39,173 nt of DNA from Escherichia phage CY1. Where the stretch lies: sequence record OM937123.1; one strand, given 5' to 3'. Of this stretch, positions 6,802 through 25,688 are shown piece after piece. Positions within the stretch are counted from its first letter, which is position 1, and each line of letters begins with the position of its first letter. The translations under genes and the position numbers were made by a program. The notes under the pieces were generated by a model. That model worked only from the letters and a program-made list of their open reading frames with translations, had not been told where the DNA came from and searched no databases.

Positions 6802-6996
6802 ATGATTGAGTTAGACTTCAAGAATGAGGTCCTTAAAGCCTCTCCTATCGTCGGGACCGCTGCGGCTGATGGTGCCAGTCGGTTCTTCTTCGGACTTACA
6901 CTGAACGAATGGTTCTACGTTGCAGCTATCGCGTACACCGTTGTCCAGATTGGTGTGCTAGTCTACAAAACGATTAAAGGAGGTGGTAAAACATGA
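6802..6996 (+). CDS. gp17.5: Holin (gp17.5-like), 64 aa
   Basis: Position immediately after the tail fibre gene; hydrophobic stretch WFYVAAIAYTVVQIGVLVY; SD GGAGG. Confidence 0.75.
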   Translation: MIELDFKNEVLKASPIVGTAAADGASRFFFGLTLNEWFYVAAIAYTVVQIGVLVYKTIKGGGKT

Positions 6997-10224: not shown

Positions 10225-10485
10225 CTTCGATGAGTTTTGGACCAAAAGTTTGAGACCACATCTCATAGTTCAAGAACCTCAAGTCTCCCCATAGGCCCTC
10301 TTTCAGTCCAGACAAAGGCCCTACCATAGACCTTCGGTCTATACCTCTAGTCTATCATAGGGTTGGACCGACTGTCAATACCTAAAGTCAACGATTGGTC
10401 ATGACTATTGGTGGTGGTGGAGACGATAGGTTGGGACTATTGGTCTGTCTCCAGTCTCTATCTGTATAACCATAGGTCCCATCAA

Positions 10486-10583
10486 CCTACAGTCTAACAA
10501 CCTACAGTCACCGACCATCGGTAGAGCCATTACCTACAGTCAAAGACCTACAGTCTAACGACACTAAGCTATCGACCTACAGT
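10486..10583. repeat. Array of five short direct repeats (ACCTACAGT-type) near the genome end
   Basis: Copies at 10486, 10501, 10533, 10547 and 10576, spaced 14-32 bp apart. Confidence 0.65.
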
Positions 10584-10936
10584 TTACAGAGACCTTAGGT
10601 CTAGTCTCAAAGGTTATCACATCCGGTCAGTTTATCAGTCAGAGACCATAGCTGACTAAAGTTATTAGTTAGTGTCTTTCTAACTGGACTTTCTATTATC
10701 CATAGTCAGGACTTAAAGTCAATCATCTGGAGTCATCCTTATATAGTCACTGGACTACTGTATAAATTACCATGATAAATAGTTGTTGACACTTTAGGTC
10801 TAACTATGGCTTAATAGCTTCCGTCAACACGACACGGCAACAACCGGATAGTGAAGACGCCGGGTCAGACCGGATAAGTAGTCAGCCTGTAAGACATACG
10901 AAAACCAGGCATCTGACAGGAAGTTGAAATAAACGC

Positions 10937-10966
10937 TTGACAAGATGTAACGACTTAAAGTAGTAT
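10937..10966 (+). promoter_or_regulatory. Host sigma70-type early promoter (T7 A3-like): TTGACA, 18-bp spacer, TAGTAT
   Basis: TTGACA at 10937-10942 and TAGTAT at 10961-10966. The surrounding sequence resembles the T7 A2/A3 region (TTGACAACATGAAGTAA...). Confidence 0.55.
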
Positions 10967-11037
10967 GTACCACATAGAAACAACGGTGAGTCCCAACACT
11001 GAAACGGGATAGCACGGCGACGACAGCCAATGCGAAT

Positions 11038-11140
11038 GCTCTTTAACAATCTGGATAAACTCTTAATGTGCGCCGATAGCGACTAACTACAGGGTCTTTG
11101 AGTCTACATCTGAAGGCCCTGACTGATAGTCACTAACAAC
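11038..11140 (+). ncRNA. Probable RNase III processing region upstream of gene 0.3 (R0.3-like)
   Basis: CTCTTTAACAATCTGGATAAAC closely matches the T7 R0.3 leader (GCTCTTTAACAATCTGGTAAATAGC) as I remember it. The structure was not folded. Confidence 0.4.
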
Positions 11141-11155
11141 TGAGAGGATATAACT

Positions 11156-11665
11156 ATGGAACGTAACGCTAACGCTTATTACGAACTGGTAGCTGCAACT
11201 GTGAAAGAATTCAACGAGCGCATCCAGTACGACCAACTGACTCAAGATGACGACTACAGCGATGCACTGCATGAAGTCGTAGGCGGTCAGGTTCCGCACT
11301 ATTACCACGAGATTTTCACTGTAATGGCTGCTGATGGTATAGGCCACGAGTTTGAGGACTCTGGGCTGATGCCTGAGACCAAGGACGTAACGTGTATACT
11401 GCAAGCTCGCATCTATGAGGCGCTGTATAACGATGTGCTTAACAGCTCGGATGTTGTCTGGTTTGAGGCTGAAGAGAGCGACGAAGAGGATGAATATTGG
11501 GTAGTTGACGCTAAAACAGGCGCAATAATTAAGCAAGCTGTGTCACTTGATGTCGCTACTGCATGTGCCAAAGATCACTATGCGATAGGTCGCCACCTGA
11601 AGGTCGAGGACATCAACGATAAAGTAGTGTTCGACCCTGCGGCTGAAGAGGGGGGCTGCGAATAA
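11156..11665 (+). CDS. ocr: Ocr-like DNA-mimic anti-restriction protein (gene 0.3 homologue) with a ~55-aa C-terminal extension, 169 aa
   Basis: [43 protein letters not shown] matches T7 Ocr ([43 protein letters not shown]); acidic tract follows. T7 Ocr is about 117 aa. Confidence 0.85.
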   Translation: [169 protein letters not shown]

Positions 11666-11820
11666 TGGTAACTTACGGTCTATGCCAGCACCACGTCACC
11701 TACGCCCGGCTTATGGTCAAGACCGGGCAGTTAACCCACGATGCGGCTATGCGTCACCTGAAAGTGGTCTACGAAGTACGAAAACATATGCACGACAGTT
11801 TGCACGCTGAGGACAAGTAA
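11665..11820 (+). CDS. Hypothetical early protein, 51 aa (gene 0.4 position)
   Basis: ATG overlaps the ocr stop (TAATG); + strand early region. Below the ORF-track cutoff; my own translation. Confidence 0.35.
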   Translation: MVTYGLCQHHVTYARLMVKTGQLTHDAAMRHLKVVYEVRKHMHDSLHAEDK

Positions 11821-11822
11821 AC

Positions 11823-11948
11823 ATGTACCAGATAACTTATAGCAGTGAACAGGCGTTCTATGATGGGTGCTACGAGATGATGAAGCGAGGGGCTTGCTAC
11901 GTGGCGAATCACCATGCGTTAACCATAACGCTGACAGGTGGATACTGA
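11823..11948 (+). CDS. Hypothetical early protein, 41 aa
   Basis: ATG 3 nt after the previous stop; + strand; my own translation. Confidence 0.25.
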   Translation: MYQITYSSEQAFYDGCYEMMKRGACYVANHHALTITLTGGY

Positions 11949-12019
11949 GTGAGAGACGAGAGGTCATCTAACTGATAGGTGGCCTCAAAGATTATCACTT
12001 AAATTGATAGGAGTTAACT

Positions 12020-12109
12020 ATGGACATAGGTTACTGGGTGTGCTTATCTCCGGTCATCTTTCTGATAGCTTGGGGACTTCTGGACGCAATCAAGCGAGGG
12101 TCATTCTAA
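12020..12109 (+). CDS. Hypothetical small hydrophobic early protein, 29 aa
   Basis: SD AGGAG with 6-nt spacer; translation MDIGYWVCLSPVIFLIAWGLLDAIKRGSF; stop overlaps the next start (TAATG). Confidence 0.35.
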   Translation: MDIGYWVCLSPVIFLIAWGLLDAIKRGSF

Positions 12110-12306
12110 TGAGCTGGATACTTCTGGCTATTTTAGGCTATGGACTTATCGCCTACGTGCTGGTGAGAGACATCAACAAAGCGCGTAAAGTCTACAAATT
12201 CAACTATGCACGTCTGGGTCGCTGGACTGTGCGTCAACCTAACGGACGATTCATGCGCAACCTCGCGAACGTCTGGGATATAGCAACCTTAGGGAGTAAA
12301 CTGTAA
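12109..12306 (+). CDS. Hypothetical early membrane protein, 65 aa
   Basis: N-terminal hydrophobic segment SWILLAILGYGLIAYVLV; same frame as listed ORF 12004-12306, whose TTG start lacks an SD. Confidence 0.45.
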   Translation: MSWILLAILGYGLIAYVLVRDINKARKVYKFNYARLGRWTVRQPNGRFMRNLANVWDIATLGSKL

Positions 12307-12566
12307 TGAAAACCGTATACACTCACAAATCATCAAGCCGTAGCCGCATGGAGCAAGTACAGCGCGATATGTTCCTACAGAGACGCATGAGAGCAGAAGG
12401 GCATAAGTCTGAGCTGATGTGTCTGGCGTATGGTGGACGACCAATCACCGACGACGGTAAACTTCTGGTCTCAGGCTGGAAGGCGATAGACCAACGGTCA
12501 ACCATCAAGCACACGACTCATGGTGACTTCAGTAATCTTCACGCTAACCCACTGATATGCAAGTAA
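12306..12566 (+). CDS. Hypothetical early protein, 86 aa
   Basis: ATG overlaps the upstream stop; + strand; no recognised homology. Confidence 0.5.
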   Translation: MKTVYTHKSSSRSRMEQVQRDMFLQRRMRAEGHKSELMCLAYGGRPITDDGKLLVSGWKAIDQRSTIKHTTHGDFSNLHANPLICK

Positions 12567-12571
12567 TTCTG

Positions 12572-12594
12572 ACTTAACTATCACTATAGGACTC
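12572..12594 (+). promoter_or_regulatory. Phage RNAP promoter directly upstream of the RNAP gene, +1 near 12589
   Basis: TTAACTATCACTATAGGACTC is a perfect consensus core, 75 bp before the gene 1 start. Confidence 0.75.
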
Positions 12595-12663
12595 AAGGTC
12601 TAAGACTCCAAGTGAAAGACCGAAGAGACTTTAAGTGAAAGACTAATAACAAGGACTTTAAGT

Positions 12664-15345
12664 ATGAGCGTCATCTCTATTGACAAACACGACTTCTCTG
12701 ATGTGTCGAACGCCATTGAGCCGTTTAACCTGCTGGCTGACCACTATGGGCAAGACCTTGCAGTCAAACAGCTTCAGCTTGAGCACGAGGCATACACTGA
12801 AGGCGAGCGACGTTTCATCAAGAACCTTGAGCGCCAGACTGAGCGCGGGGAACTGGCAGACAATCAGGTCGCCAAGCCTTTGATGCAGACTCTGGTCCCT
12901 AAGATTGCACAAGCCGTTAGGGAGTGGCATGAAGGGCCGGACGGGAAGCTGTCAACCTCTCGTCCTAGCGTAGCGTTCACCATGTTGAGCACTGAAGAGA
13001 AGGCCATCAAGGACCGCTCTCTGCGCATCTCCTGCGAGTCTGCTGCGGTTATCATACTGAAGGTCATTCTCTCCAAGCTGGTCAAGCCTGAAGGGATACC
13101 GATTACACCGATGGCCTCCGCGATAGGTCGCACACTTGAAGATGAAATCCGCTTCGGTAGAATCCGAGACAAGGAGCAGGAGCACTTCAAGAAGGCGATA
13201 GCTGAGAACCTGAACAAGCGAGCTGGTGCATCCTATAAGAAGGCCTACATGCAAGCGGTTGAGACCTCCATGCTGGAGCAAGGACAACTGGAAGATGCGT
13301 GGGGTACTTGGAGTCCGACCGAGGCGGTACACGTTGGCATCAAGATGCTTGAGATTGTCATACAGTCTACACAACTGGTCGAGCTTAAGCGTTATGGTGC
13401 TGGCAATGCAGCGGCTGATGTTGAGATGGTCCACCTGTCAGACTTCTGGGTCAAGAAGATGGCACAACGTGGATTCAGCCTTGCGGGTATCGCGCCAGTC
13501 TATCAGCCTTGCGTCGTTCCACCTAAGCCGTGGACGGGTGTCGTAGGCGGTGGGTACTGGGCCAAAGGTCGCAGACCCTTACCATTGATTCGCTTAGGGT
13601 CTAAGTCTGCGGTGGCACGTTACGAAGACGTATACATGCCTGAAGTCTATGACGCTGTCAACATCATCCAGAATACACCTTGGAAAGTGAACAAGAAGGT
13701 TCTGGACGTGGTGAACATGGTCGAGAAGTTGAACAACACGCCTATTGATGACATCCCTCAGATGGAGCCACTGAAGCCTGAGGACTATGCTGGTGAGACC
13801 GAGGAAGAGCTTAAAGCGTGGAAGAAAGCTGCGGCAGGTATCTATCGCCGAGAGAAGGCCAGGCAGTCGCGCAGGTTGTCACTGAGCTTTATCGTCAACC
13901 AAGCGAACAAGTTCTCTCAGTTCAAGGCCATCTGGTTCCCGTACAACATGGACTGGCGTGGTCGCGTCTACGCTGTGCCGATGTTCAACCCTCAGGGTAA
14001 CGACATGCAAAAGGGTCTCCTGACTCTGGCAGTCGGTAAGCCTATTGGTGCTGACGGTTTCAAATGGCTGAAGGTCCACGGTGCAAACTGTGCGGGTATT
14101 GATAAAGTAACCTTCGAGGAGCGCATCAAGTGGGTGGAAGATAACCACGACAACATCATGGCTGCTGCTAAGGCACCAATGGATAGCATTGAGTGGTGGG
14201 GTAAGTTAGACTCTCCGTTCTGCTTCCTAGCGTTCTGCTTCGAGTATGCTGGCGTAATGCATCACGGATTGTCTTACTCCTGCTCGCTGCCGATAGCTTT
14301 CGATGGGTCCTGCTCTGGGATTCAGCACTTCAGCGCGATGCTTCGTGACCACATCGGTGGACACGCAGTAAACCTGACGCCATCCGGTAAGGTCCAAGAC
14401 ATCTACCGCATTGTGTCTGACCGCATTGAGGAGGAACTCAAAGTCCTGCTGGTTAACGGTACGGACAACGAGATGGTGACTCACGAGGACAAGAAGACTG
14501 GTGAGATTACCGAACGTCTCAAGCTGGGGACACGAGAGCTGGCCCGTCAGTGGCTGACTTACGGTATGTCACGCAAGGTCACTAAGCGTTCAGTCATGAC
14601 TCTGGCCTACGGGTCGAAAGAGTATGGCTTCGCAGACCAAGTGTACGAAGATATAGTGATGCCAGCGATTGACTCAGGGTCTGGCGCTATGTTCACTGAA
14701 CCCAGCCAAGCATCTCGCTTCATGGCTAAGATGATTTGGGAAGCTGTTAGTGTGACCGTAGTTGCTGCGGTTGACGCGATGAAGTGGCTTCAAGGTGCTG
14801 CCAAGCTGCTGGCTGCTGAAGTAAAGGACAAGAAGACTGGTGAAATCCTGAAGCCTTGCCTTCCTGTACACTGGGTCACACCTGATGGTTTCCCTGTCTG
14901 GCAGGAATACCGCAAGAAGGATACCACTCGTCTGAACCTGATGTTCTTAGGGTCATTCAACCTTCAGCCTACCGTCAACAGAGGTTCGAAGAAAGAGCTG
15001 GACAAGCATAAGCAGGAGTCAGGCATTAGCCCGAACTTCGTCCACTCACAAGATGGTAGCCACCTCCGCAAGACTGTAGTCCACACGCACCGCAAGTATG
15101 GTGTGATGTCCTTCGCAGTGATTCACGATAGCTTCGGGACCATCCCGGCTGACGCTGAGTATCTGTTCCGTGGAGTCCGTGAGACAATGGTTGAGACCTA
15201 CCGCGACAACGATGTGCTGCTTGACTTCTACGAGCAGTTCGAATACCAGCTTCACGAGAGCCAGCGCGACAAGTTGCCTGAGCTTCCGAAGAAAGGTAAA
15301 CTGAATATCGAAGACATCTTGTCTTCAGACTTTGCATTCGCTTAA
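12664..15345 (+). CDS. gp1: Single-subunit DNA-directed RNA polymerase (T7 gene 1 homologue), 893 aa
   Basis: Extensive identity to T7 RNAP: FGRIRD, PCVVPPKPWTG, WFPYNMDWRGRVYAV, FCFLAFCFEYAG, DGSCSGIQHFSAMLRD, HDSFGT and the C-terminal FAFA. Confidence 0.97.
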   Translation: MSVISIDKHDFSDVSNAIEPFNLLADHYGQDLAVKQLQLEHEAYTEGERRFIKNLERQTERGELADNQVAKPLMQTLVPKIAQAVREWHEGPDGKLSTSRPSVAFTMLSTEEKAIKDRSLRISCESAAVIILKVILSKLVKPEGIPITPMASAIGRTLEDEIRFGRIRDKEQEHFKKAIAENLNKRAGASYKKAYMQAVETSMLEQGQLEDAWGTWSPTEAVHVGIKMLEIVIQSTQLVELKRYGAGNAAADVEMVHLSDFWVKKMAQRGFSLAGIAPVYQPCVVPPKPWTGVVGGGYWAKGRRPLPLIRLGSKSAVARYEDVYMPEVYDAVNIIQNTPWKVNKKVLDVVNMVEKLNNTPIDDIPQMEPLKPEDYAGETEEELKAWKKAAAGIYRREKARQSRRLSLSFIVNQANKFSQFKAIWFPYNMDWRGRVYAVPMFNPQGNDMQKGLLTLAVGKPIGADGFKWLKVHGANCAGIDKVTFEERIKWVEDNHDNIMAAAKAPMDSIEWWGKLDSPFCFLAFCFEYAGVMHHGLSYSCSLPIAFDGSCSGIQHFSAMLRDHIGGHAVNLTPSGKVQDIYRIVSDRIEEELKVLLVNGTDNEMVTHEDKKTGEITERLKLGTRELARQWLTYGMSRKVTKRSVMTLAYGSKEYGFADQVYEDIVMPAIDSGSGAMFTEPSQASRFMAKMIWEAVSVTVVAAVDAMKWLQGAAKLLAAEVKDKKTGEILKPCLPVHWVTPDGFPVWQEYRKKDTTRLNLMFLGSFNLQPTVNRGSKKELDKHKQESGISPNFVHSQDGSHLRKTVVHTHRKYGVMSFAVIHDSFGTIPADAEYLFRGVRETMVETYRDNDVLLDFYEQFEYQLHESQRDKLPELPKKGKLNIEDILSSDFAFA

Positions 15346-18588: not shown

Positions 18589-18742
18589 GTCAACTGAGAA
18601 GAAATACATCGTGGAGCTTGAGGGTCGCGTTCAGTCCTTCGAGGTTCCGGTGTACGCAAAGTCTCTTGAAGAGGCTACCCTGAAGTCCCAAGAGTATGAG
18701 GACGCTGGGTTTGTGGTCGGACGGATTCGTCCTGAGACCTAA
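18578..18742 (+). CDS. gp2: Host RNA polymerase inhibitor Gp2 homologue, 54 aa (below the ORF-track cutoff)
   Basis: My translation [54 protein letters not shown] matches T7 Gp2 (SFEVPIYAETLDEA...GFEVTRVRP). SD GGAGG. Confidence 0.8.
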
Positions 18743-25198: not shown

Positions 25199-25482
25199 TG
25201 GCTATTACTAAACGTATTCGTGTAAGTTTCGACCTGAAGATGGTTGTCAACTCAAAGGAAGAAGAGACCATGTGTCGCCAACTGGTTGAGATGACTAAAG
25301 CCTACGCTGAGGGTGAGAAGCTGGATGGACTTCAGTTGGCTCTGGTCAAAGCAGCAATAGAGTCAGGCCATGAGTATGCCCTTGAAATTGTCGCCAAGAA
25401 GAGCATCAAGGAAGAGCTGGTAGACGTCTTTGGTGATGGTCAGTTCGGTGTGTCCAACCTGCGATTCGAGGTCAAGCAATGA
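25198..25482 (+). CDS. gp5.5: gp5.5-like protein, 94 aa
   Basis: Position, size and N-terminal similarity to T7 gp5.5 (MA.TK...VSFD). Confidence 0.65.
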   Translation: MAITKRIRVSFDLKMVVNSKEEETMCRQLVEMTKAYAEGEKLDGLQLALVKAAIESGHEYALEIVAKKSIKEELVDVFGDGQFGVSNLRFEVKQ

Positions 25483-25688
25483 GTGAATACTTACGGGTCC
25501 TAGCGGCCCTTAAGTCCTGCCCGAAGACCTTCCAGTCCAACTATGTGCGCAACAACGCTGCACTTGTGGCTGAGGCTGCGAGTCGTGGACATCTAAGCTG
25601 CCTGTCTATGGATGGGCGTAACAATGGTGCGTGGGAGATTACCGCTGCTGGCACCAAGTTCCTGAACCAACACGGAGGCTGTCTATGA
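25479..25688 (+). CDS. gp5.7: gp5.7 homologue, 69 aa
   Basis: LKSCPKTFQSNYVRNNAALVAEAASRGHLSC...GAWEITAAGTKFL is near-identical to T7 gp5.7. Confidence 0.85.
   Translation: MSEYLRVLAALKSCPKTFQSNYVRNNAALVAEAASRGHLSCLSMDGRNNGAWEITAAGTKFLNQHGGCL

Follow-up and report, generated by a model that had tools for sequence, protein, structure and literature searches.

Gene content of the early region

The sequence analysed here, referred to as the window, is the whole 39,173-base stretch of record OM937123.1 and constitutes a complete, circularly permuted genome, that of Escherichia phage CY1, a K1F-like relative of T7 in the genus Kayfunavirus. A scan with the T7 proteome found homologues of gp1.2, ligase, gp2, gp2.5, gp5 and gp5.7 together with the structural genes, all in the T7 order. 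The region of interest lies between ocr (gene 0.3; 11156-11665) and gene 1, which encodes the single-subunit RNA polymerase (12664-15345); both of these genes, like the other features of the early block and the gp2 and gp5.7 homologues, are on the plus strand. The ocr stop and the polymerase start are separated by 998 nt, and five small genes, encoding proteins of 51, 41, 29, 65 and 86 amino acids, are found inside this interval. The order is ocr, the 51-aa gene, the 41-aa gene, a hairpin, the 29-aa gene, the 65-aa gene, the gene for gp0.38 (86 aa), a phage promoter and gene 1. The initial annotation had described an interval of about 1 kb containing the same five open reading frames (ORFs), and was accurate both on its length and on their positions.

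This arrangement is common among related phages. The stretch 11000-12700 is matched by 247 phage records, most of which come from Escherichia and Salmonella phages placed in Kayfunavirus, with phage TH20 as the top match (89.8% over 98%). For 12020-12566 together with its flanks (11940-12670) there are 202 matching records, the top one at 92.2%. More than 200 GenBank phages have the same layout, and the same gene set is annotated in K1F, EPr2 and Peacock. The layout is already known, having been annotated in K1F since deposition, and it is normal for this well-sampled genus; in itself it matters little.

A comparison of 20 loci showed the region to be mosaic. The genes for the 65-aa protein and for gp0.38 are the nearly constant part, and gp0.38 occupies the same position, directly 5' of gene 1, in all 20. 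The slot for the membrane peptide is filled by the 29-aa type, by the 55-aa type represented by K1F gp0.36, or by both. Optional cassettes occur as well, among them genes for a 66-aa protein, a 115-aa HTH protein and a 140-aa endonuclease VII. An Rfam search of 10300-13000 gave no match, and neither did Pfam, NCBIfam, PADLOC and PDB sequence searches with the five small proteins.

The small open reading frames are genes

Each of the five ORFs has a Shine-Dalgarno sequence (SD) 7-10 nt upstream, and adjacent genes overlap by TAATG at three junctions (ocr/51, 29/65 and 65/86). Pooled dN/dS values are 0.22 for the 51-aa ORF, 0.09 for the 41-aa, 0.14 for the 29-aa, 0.26 for the 65-aa and 0.25 for the 86-aa ORF, using between 11 and 19 ungapped orthologues per ORF taken from 16 IMG/VR loci and GenBank relatives; the value for the 41-aa ORF rests on 11 of these.

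Random ORFs of 29 codons are common, and the ORF list for this genome holds many, so that the small ORFs, and above all the 29-aa one, could be taken for chance frames within a leader region. The 29-aa ORF is, however, under constraint that is specific to its frame: pN/pS is 0.29 in its own frame versus 1.23 and 1.27 in the other two, and in 12 orthologues there are 0 stops in its own frame compared with 40 and 10 in the others. Its SD, AGGAG, is also conserved. Together with the dN/dS values of 0.09-0.26 across the five ORFs, this frame-specific constraint refutes the chance reading for practical purposes, and we consider it extremely improbable.

Annotations in related phages agree. The same ORFs are annotated in EPr2 and Peacock, with EPr2 calling the 29-aa and 65-aa products transmembrane proteins, and the K1F record annotates genes 0.35, 0.37 and 0.38. 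On these sequence grounds we conclude that all five ORFs are real genes. Their products all belong to catalogued, uncharacterised families, with the exception of the 29-aa peptide, which relatives annotate and which has no PHROG. The description of the small ORFs as uncharacterised early genes in the initial annotation therefore stands.

Two of the five products have one strongly hydrophobic segment each, as had been noted from the sequence: the maximum Kyte-Doolittle (KD) value in a 17-residue window is 2.04 for the 29-aa peptide and 2.36 for the 65-aa protein, compared with 0.25-0.59 for the other three. Profile searches, which the initial annotation had recommended for every small ORF, assigned PHROG families to the 51-, 41-, 65- and 86-aa products and none to the 29-aa one.

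ocr and the genes upstream of the hairpin

The ocr protein is 169 residues long and carries a C-terminal extension that is absent from T7 Ocr. It matches Pfam ocr (E = 2.9e-29) and phrog_2568 (E = 6.4e-52), and is 58-60% identical to T7 gp0.3 over 72-76 aa.

The 51-aa protein (11665-11820), the counterpart of K1F gp0.35, matches phrog_5058 (E = 3.5e-26), the family that contains K11 gp0.4, and this family and the T7 gp0.4 family (phrog_7202) find each other in reciprocal cross-hits. Profile-profile comparison with T7/CR8 gp0.4 using hhalign gave a probability of 95.8% (E = 7.8e-9, 41 columns). At 51 aa the protein is as long as T7 gp0.4, and its start codon and the stop of ocr overlap at 11665 (TAATG), as in T7 at 1278 (ATGA). 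The sequence comparisons thus place the 51-aa protein in the gp0.4 family. T7 gp0.4 is an FtsZ inhibitor, and infection by K1F mislocalises FtsZ (PMC9372555). By analogy, the mislocalisation in K1F is compatible with an active gp0.4 homologue, and the 51-aa protein, which is 37% identical to T7 gp0.4, may block FtsZ in the same way.

The 41-aa gene (11823-11948) is an optional early gene: of the 20 loci in the comparison, all K1F-like or CR8-like, 13 have it. Its product matches phrog_33188 (E = 1.7e-6), and no informative match was found for it in Pfam, NCBIfam or PADLOC.

The proteins downstream of the hairpin

The first gene downstream of the hairpin (12020-12109) encodes a 29-aa peptide which, from its hydrophobicity, its SD and the constraint on its frame, is predicted to be a single-pass membrane peptide. 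Searches of PHROG, Pfam, NCBIfam and PADLOC gave no match for it, and it was not matched to T7 gp0.5 (phrog_16572) by blastp, tblastn or PHROG. As in T7 gp0.5, the ORF is small and hydrophobic, lies just 3' of an R0.5-type hairpin, and overlaps the next gene by TAATG. We therefore regard its place in the T7 gene 0.5 slot as a positional analogy only. T7 gp0.5 is itself a putative membrane protein that is uncharacterised (PMC12798971).

The 65-aa protein (12109-12306) corresponds to K1F gp0.37 and is predicted to be membrane-anchored. It matches phrog_2385 with E = 1.8e-30, and the same profile finds T3 gp0.6 (9.1e-30) and K11 gp0.6A (1.5e-29); this sequence similarity identifies it as a member of the T3 gp0.6/K11 gp0.6A family. 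Homologues are carried by 363 phage records. The family numbers 301 proteins, all of about 65 aa, all on phage contigs of about 40 kb and all lacking a Pfam domain. The invariant residues are D21, K24, G37-R38, T40-V41-R42 and N45-G46-R47-F48, of which the last two groups make up a TVR-x-x-NGRF motif. The hydrophobic peak lies at residues 3-19. The AlphaFold2 model (pLDDT 81.5) has a helix at residues 2-28, followed by three short strands and a second helix at 55-64, so that the protein is predicted to have a transmembrane (TM) helix at its N-terminus and, after it, an alpha/beta tail that is basic (net charge +9).

We also considered homology of the 65-aa protein to T7 gp0.6A (PF26851), which is an MreB inhibitor, and found no support for it. 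The hhalign probability is 0.6% with T7 gp0.6A as a single sequence and 0.4% when both sides are profiles, the alignable part is limited to a stretch of 7-9 residues (TV-x-x-P-N/D-G), and the two proteins fall into different PHROGs (2385 for the 65-aa protein and 8393 for T7 gp0.6A). The label gp0.6 on the 65-aa family is therefore positional only, and inhibition of MreB, the function of T7 gp0.6, is not to be transferred to it. Homologues in EcoDS1 carry the names gp0.35 and gp0.6 (PMC4925675).

The 86-aa protein gp0.38 (12306-12566) is basic and soluble. It matches phrog_7066 (E = 7.8e-43) and is carried by 223 phage records. The 131 matches that make up its family are all on K1F-like contigs, and among 1.84 billion proteins only 13 cluster representatives match; on this distribution the family is confined to the K1F-like lineage. 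The C-terminal 40 residues are nearly invariant, and the N-terminus is variable, giving forms of 83, 86, 108, 130 and 139 aa. The AlphaFold2 model is poor (pLDDT 52.6), and hence no fold was assigned. A literature search found no paper naming gp0.38.

The hairpin and the empty kinase site

The 41-aa and 29-aa genes are separated by a gap of 71 nt, and a long imperfect hairpin is found at 11945-12002, with a minimum free energy of -23.2 kcal/mol (z = -4.0 to -4.7). It is built from a lower stem, an internal loop and an upper stem, as are T7 1430-1477 and the annotated T3 R0.5. The framework GUGAUAGAC...AGGUC...GGCCU...GAUUAUCAC is common to T7 1430-1477, and the hairpin resembles the annotated T3 R0.5. 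In 16 loci it is conserved on the 5' side of whichever membrane-peptide gene comes first. From its structure and sequence we identify this hairpin as a homologue of the T7/T3 RNase III site R0.5, lying between the counterparts of genes 0.4 and 0.5. By its likeness to the T7 and T3 sites, it would be cut by host RNase III.

The initial annotation reported that this region has no gene 0.7-type protein kinase, and our searches bear this out. When T7, T3, K11 and CR8 gp0.7 were used as tblastn queries against the whole window, there was no match at E <= 0.01 (best E = 1.4), whereas the same queries do detect the kinases of CR8, L021 and L022 (E 1e-29 to 1e-82). A check for a kinase in all frames found none, and no ORF of the interval is longer than 100 aa. 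For the Kayfunavirus CR44b, a lack of gene 0.7 had been described in 2014 (PMC4038870).

In other relatives the kinase is present. A kinase-only gp0.7 of 242-244 aa, which lacks the C-terminal third of T7 gp0.7, is found in CR8, L021, L022, SFPH2, phage B1 and EFA-1; in phage B1 the kinase has 243 aa and is at the equivalent site (PMC12785254). This short kinase is always 5' of the 65-aa (gp0.6-type) and gp0.38 genes, and the membrane-peptide gene precedes these two except in L022. About 44 phage records have the short kinase (at least 80% identity), versus 223 with gp0.38.

In EFA-1, a copy of the hairpin is found on either side of a kinase-only gp0.7 of 244 aa, in the order 41-aa gene, hairpin, kinase, hairpin, 29-aa ORF, 65-aa gene, 86-aa gene and RNA polymerase (the 29-aa ORF was read off the sequence, as it carries no annotation there). 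Positions 11820-12002 of the window align with EFA-1 sequence to the left of the kinase, and positions 11945-12700 with sequence to its right, the latter with 88% identity. The two alignments overlap exactly at the single hairpin of the window, which aligns to both EFA-1 copies. R0.5-like hairpin sequences adjoin the kinase in CR8, L021 and L022 too. These alignments show the gp0.7 kinase to be an optional cassette in this lineage, and the window, with one copy of the hairpin, to represent the exact empty site. The pattern in EFA-1 and the window has the signature of a cassette bordered by direct repeats that is gained or lost through recombination between them, although the repeats alone do not tell loss of the kinase from gain. 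A kinase cassette flanked by repeats of an RNase III site would provide a concrete route by which T7-like phages gain and lose early genes.

The presence of the kinase in some relatives also bears on the suggestion, made in the initial annotation, that the early region holds small ORFs instead of a kinase. This wording does not hold. T7, T3 and K11 have the small genes 0.4, 0.5 and 0.6 alongside 0.7; the 51-aa and 65-aa proteins are themselves homologues of gp0.4 and of T3/K11 gp0.6, respectively; and in EFA-1 a 29-aa peptide gene can be read after the kinase. A stronger version of the idea would be a non-orthologous replacement, in which the block of membrane peptide and gp0.38 took over the job of gp0.7 in host transcription shut-off or in control of host RNases, with gp0.38 acting as a stand-alone C-terminal shut-off domain. 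Such a replacement would fit with the location of gp0.38 at the site of T7 gene 0.7, with its strong conservation and near-universal presence in the lineage, and with the missing C-terminal third of the relatives' kinases. However, the 65-aa protein and gp0.38 coexist with the kinase in CR8, L021, L022, EFA-1 and B1, accompanied by a membrane-peptide gene in four of the five kinase phages read, and therefore are not its replacement. In addition, hhalign gives gp0.38 versus gp0.7 a probability of 0.3%, and the weak alignment obtained is N-terminal, outside the shut-off region. We therefore rate replacement as very improbable, and reject the identification of gp0.38 as a detached shut-off domain of gp0.7. 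We likewise reject the idea that gp0.38 is what remains of the N-terminal part of the kinase, for which the sole weak alignment, to T7 gp0.7 residues 38-87, is not significant (P = 0.21).

Transcription of the block and host shut-off

A candidate sigma-70-type early promoter is present 5' of ocr at 10937-10966, recognised only by its consensus match (TTGACA-18-TAGTAT, 10/12 positions), and its position corresponds to that of the T7 A promoters. The block would be transcribed by the host RNA polymerase from promoters 5' of ocr during DNA entry. A promoter for the phage RNA polymerase, identified as a repeated motif, lies just 5' of gene 1 (12570-12592). Its core, TCACTATAGG, and its -17 to -1 flank match 8 other copies on the plus strand, and the motif gives 12 matches versus 2.3 expected. 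The motif and the remaining spacer 5' of gene 1 are nearly invariant in 19 relatives. Although the spacer is so well conserved, the fold z-score of 12560-12668 is only -1.3, and so we do not claim an R1 site there.

The RNA polymerase has 62.6% identity to T7 gp1 over 898 aa. T7 gp2 and gp5.7 inhibit the host RNA polymerase, and tblastn found a homologue of each: gp2 at 18596-18733 (E = 1e-9, 47% identity) and gp5.7 at 25479-25685 (E = 2.5e-36, 77% identity). By analogy with T7, these two homologues should be enough to explain host shut-off without gp0.7, and we propose that shut-off of host transcription rests on them.

Proposed role of the early block

The comparisons described above establish which genes are present, which families they belong to and that they are under purifying selection, and they establish the hairpin and the empty site as well; we are highly confident of the anatomy of the block as described. 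They show that 12020-12566 is the counterpart of T7 genes 0.5-0.6-0.7, with the 0.5 slot taken by a small hydrophobic peptide, the 0.6 slot by a small basic protein and the 0.7 slot by gp0.38. We consider it probable that the interval is the standard class I (early) block, in its kinase-less form, of a K1F-like phage.

The 29-, 65- and 86-aa genes may undergo coupled translation, because the stop of one gene and the start of the next overlap (TAATG) at each of the two junctions. Of the three products, the 29-aa and 65-aa proteins would insert into the inner membrane in an N-out/C-in orientation, given that a basic tail follows the helix in each (this uses the positive-inside rule only), and gp0.38 would be cytoplasmic. 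A role in host takeover or anti-defence, as proposed in the initial annotation for small early proteins at this location, is a reasonable prior. We suggest that the three proteins are non-essential host-takeover or competition factors. Early factors of this kind, two of which would act at the inner membrane, are the most likely role of the block, and we would put it at about an even chance.

A more specific proposal is that one or more of the three proteins inhibits a host immune system or hides the phage from it; a membrane-associated abortive-infection system would be a natural target for two membrane proteins. The three genes are in the first DNA to enter the cell and adjoin ocr, and their slot is highly mosaic: peptides of 29 aa and 55 aa alternate there, some loci carry optional cassettes, and the N-terminus of gp0.38 is modular. 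Mosaicism has been argued in general to be typical of arms-race accessory regions (10.1101/2023.04.06.535777). The searches of PADLOC, Pfam and NCBIfam gave no match, though, and the five sequences were not found in the supplements of the accessory-gene screen reported in the same study. The 65-aa gene is, moreover, conserved and almost core over several Studiervirinae genera, unlike a fast-turnover anti-defence gene. On balance, anti-defence seems to us rather unlikely.

Small, early proteins that are predicted to cross the membrane once might also act in superinfection exclusion or in lysis timing, by blocking the entry of competing phage DNA or by modulating the triggering of the holin. T7 gp0.4, from the same operon, delays lysis (PMC9372555). 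On the other hand, a canonical holin homologue is located elsewhere in the window (6802-6963), and neither of the two membrane proteins resembles a known Sie, Imm or antiholin family, so we view this role as improbable. It is similarly doubtful that the three genes 3' of R0.5 form one inner-membrane host-takeover or anti-defence module with a target that is new for T7-like phages, in which gp0.38 would represent a novel kind of early effector found only in K1F-like phages.

Whichever role applies, the 29-aa peptide, gp0.38 and the T3-type gp0.6 family, which is widespread, are conserved early proteins that are cheap to test. Kayfunaviruses serve as therapeutic candidates, and given this use the function of their early genes has some practical value.

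Comparison with known phages

K1F (AM084414; genes 0.3, 0.35, 0.36, 0.37, 0.38 and 1) has the same gene order as the window and likewise has no gene 0.7. Identity is 78% between K1F gp0.35 and the 51-aa ORF, 88% between gp0.37 and the 65-aa ORF, and 86% between gp0.38 and the 86-aa ORF. The two phages also have in common the R0.5-like hairpin and, 5' of gene 1, the spacer that bears the promoter. They differ at two points: K1F has the 55-aa two-helix membrane peptide gp0.36 (phrog_7319) at the site of the 29-aa gene, and it lacks the 41-aa gene that is present in the window.

Among kinase-bearing relatives in Kayfunavirus and Caroctavirus (EFA-1, SFPH2, B1 and CR8), the block of membrane peptide, gp0.6-type protein and gp0.38 is as in the window, and the promoter spacer of the window is also found in EFA-1, L021 and L022. 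The kinase-bearing phages differ in having an insertion with the 41-aa gene on one side and the hairpin on the other; it carries the kinase-only gp0.7 of 242-244 aa and sometimes also the 115-aa HTH gene.

The gp0.6-type proteins of T3 (gp0.6), K11 (gp0.6A) and EcoDS1 (gp0.6) have the same length as the 65-aa ORF, the same N-terminal TM helix and the same invariant motif, and their genes occupy the same place 3' of R0.5. Identity of the 65-aa ORF to the T3 and K11 proteins is 38-48%. In T3 and K11 the gp0.6-type gene is 5' of a full-length gp0.7, whereas in the window it is 5' of gp0.38.

T7 (genes 0.3, 0.4, 0.5, 0.6A/B, 0.7 and 1) resembles the window in its overall plan: ocr is joined to the gp0.4 homologue by a stop/start overlap, and is followed by the R0.5 hairpin, a small hydrophobic peptide and a small basic protein, with gene 1 downstream. 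The similarity of the small proteins 3' of the hairpin is one of position, in that the 29-aa peptide has no sequence similarity to T7 gp0.5 and the 65-aa protein has no detectable kinship to T7 gp0.6A. T7 has gp0.7 and the window has none; and the window has a phage promoter 5' of gene 1, where the T7 annotation gives E. coli promoter C only.

Hairpin repeats and optional early genes

The kinase gene of the early region is an optional cassette, bounded by direct repeats that are RNase III-type hairpins. Hairpin copies lie beside the kinase at about 400-457 and 1205-1262 in EFA-1 (L025) and at 1010-1090 and 2165-2240 in a second relative, L022 (coordinates for relatives are internal to the compared early-region loci). 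A single copy is left in the window, at 11945-12002, and it is the exact empty site of the kinase cassette. Such RNase III-type processing sites may have a second role, as points at which recombination shuffles early genes.

Four relatives carry a kinase-only gp0.7 of 242-244 aa: CR8 (L007, 1875-2603), L021 (920-1654), L022 (1439-2173) and EFA-1 (478-1212). These proteins lack the C-terminal third found in gp0.7 of T7, T3 and K11, which is 334-369 aa long.

Two further genes are optional in relatives. A 140-aa gene with an endonuclease VII domain (Pfam E = 2.8e-26) is located between the 65-aa gene and the gp0.38 gene, at 2010-2432 in L019 and 2079-2501 in L021; and a 115-aa HTH gene (Brinker/transposase-like) is located downstream of the 41-aa gene, at 1661-2008 in L013, 1731-2078 in L017 and 1089-1436 in L022.

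Variation in early proteins and the left genome end

The N-terminus of gp0.38 is modular, as seen in the long forms P0044, P0046 and P0103 and in L011 (2366-2758). The forms of 130-139 aa contain an extra conserved segment, 'FTDKNGVEWKYVGTDSRGRNYWEKTG', for which no family match was found. In one relative (L016, 2292-2435), an in-frame deletion joins the 29-aa peptide to the final 19 residues of the 65-aa protein; the resulting 47-aa reading frame may represent a naturally occurring hybrid, or else a gene in decay. An 'AMAYGAS' stretch, noted by eye, is common to T3 gp0.65 (L006, 1614-1781) and K11 gp0.4, and on this sequence likeness T3 gp0.65 may be a displaced gp0.4 relative.

Ocr in the window (11156-11665) is 169 aa long, including a C-terminal extension of approximately 55 residues, which is absent from the 117-aa Ocr of T7 and from several close relatives, where ocr stops at around 110-112 aa. 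Near the presumed left genome end, at 10500-10620, there are short tandem repeats of the 'acctacagtc' type, consistent with the reading that the window is a whole genome in permuted form; a similar repeat, (acctacagtcaac)3, is annotated in CR8.

The promoter and spacer before gene 1

Directly 5' of the RNAP gene lies a full phage-RNAP promoter (core 12570-12592, sequence gacttaactaTCACTATAGGact), within a spacer (12567-12663). Of 20 relatives, 19 have this spacer almost unchanged, even though the genes on either side are only ~80% identical. Because the phage promoter is present and the spacer is nearly invariant, the sequence suggests that gene 1 is under positive autoregulation, with a constrained 5' leader. 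In T7, by contrast, the sole promoter annotated just before gene 1 is E. coli promoter C.
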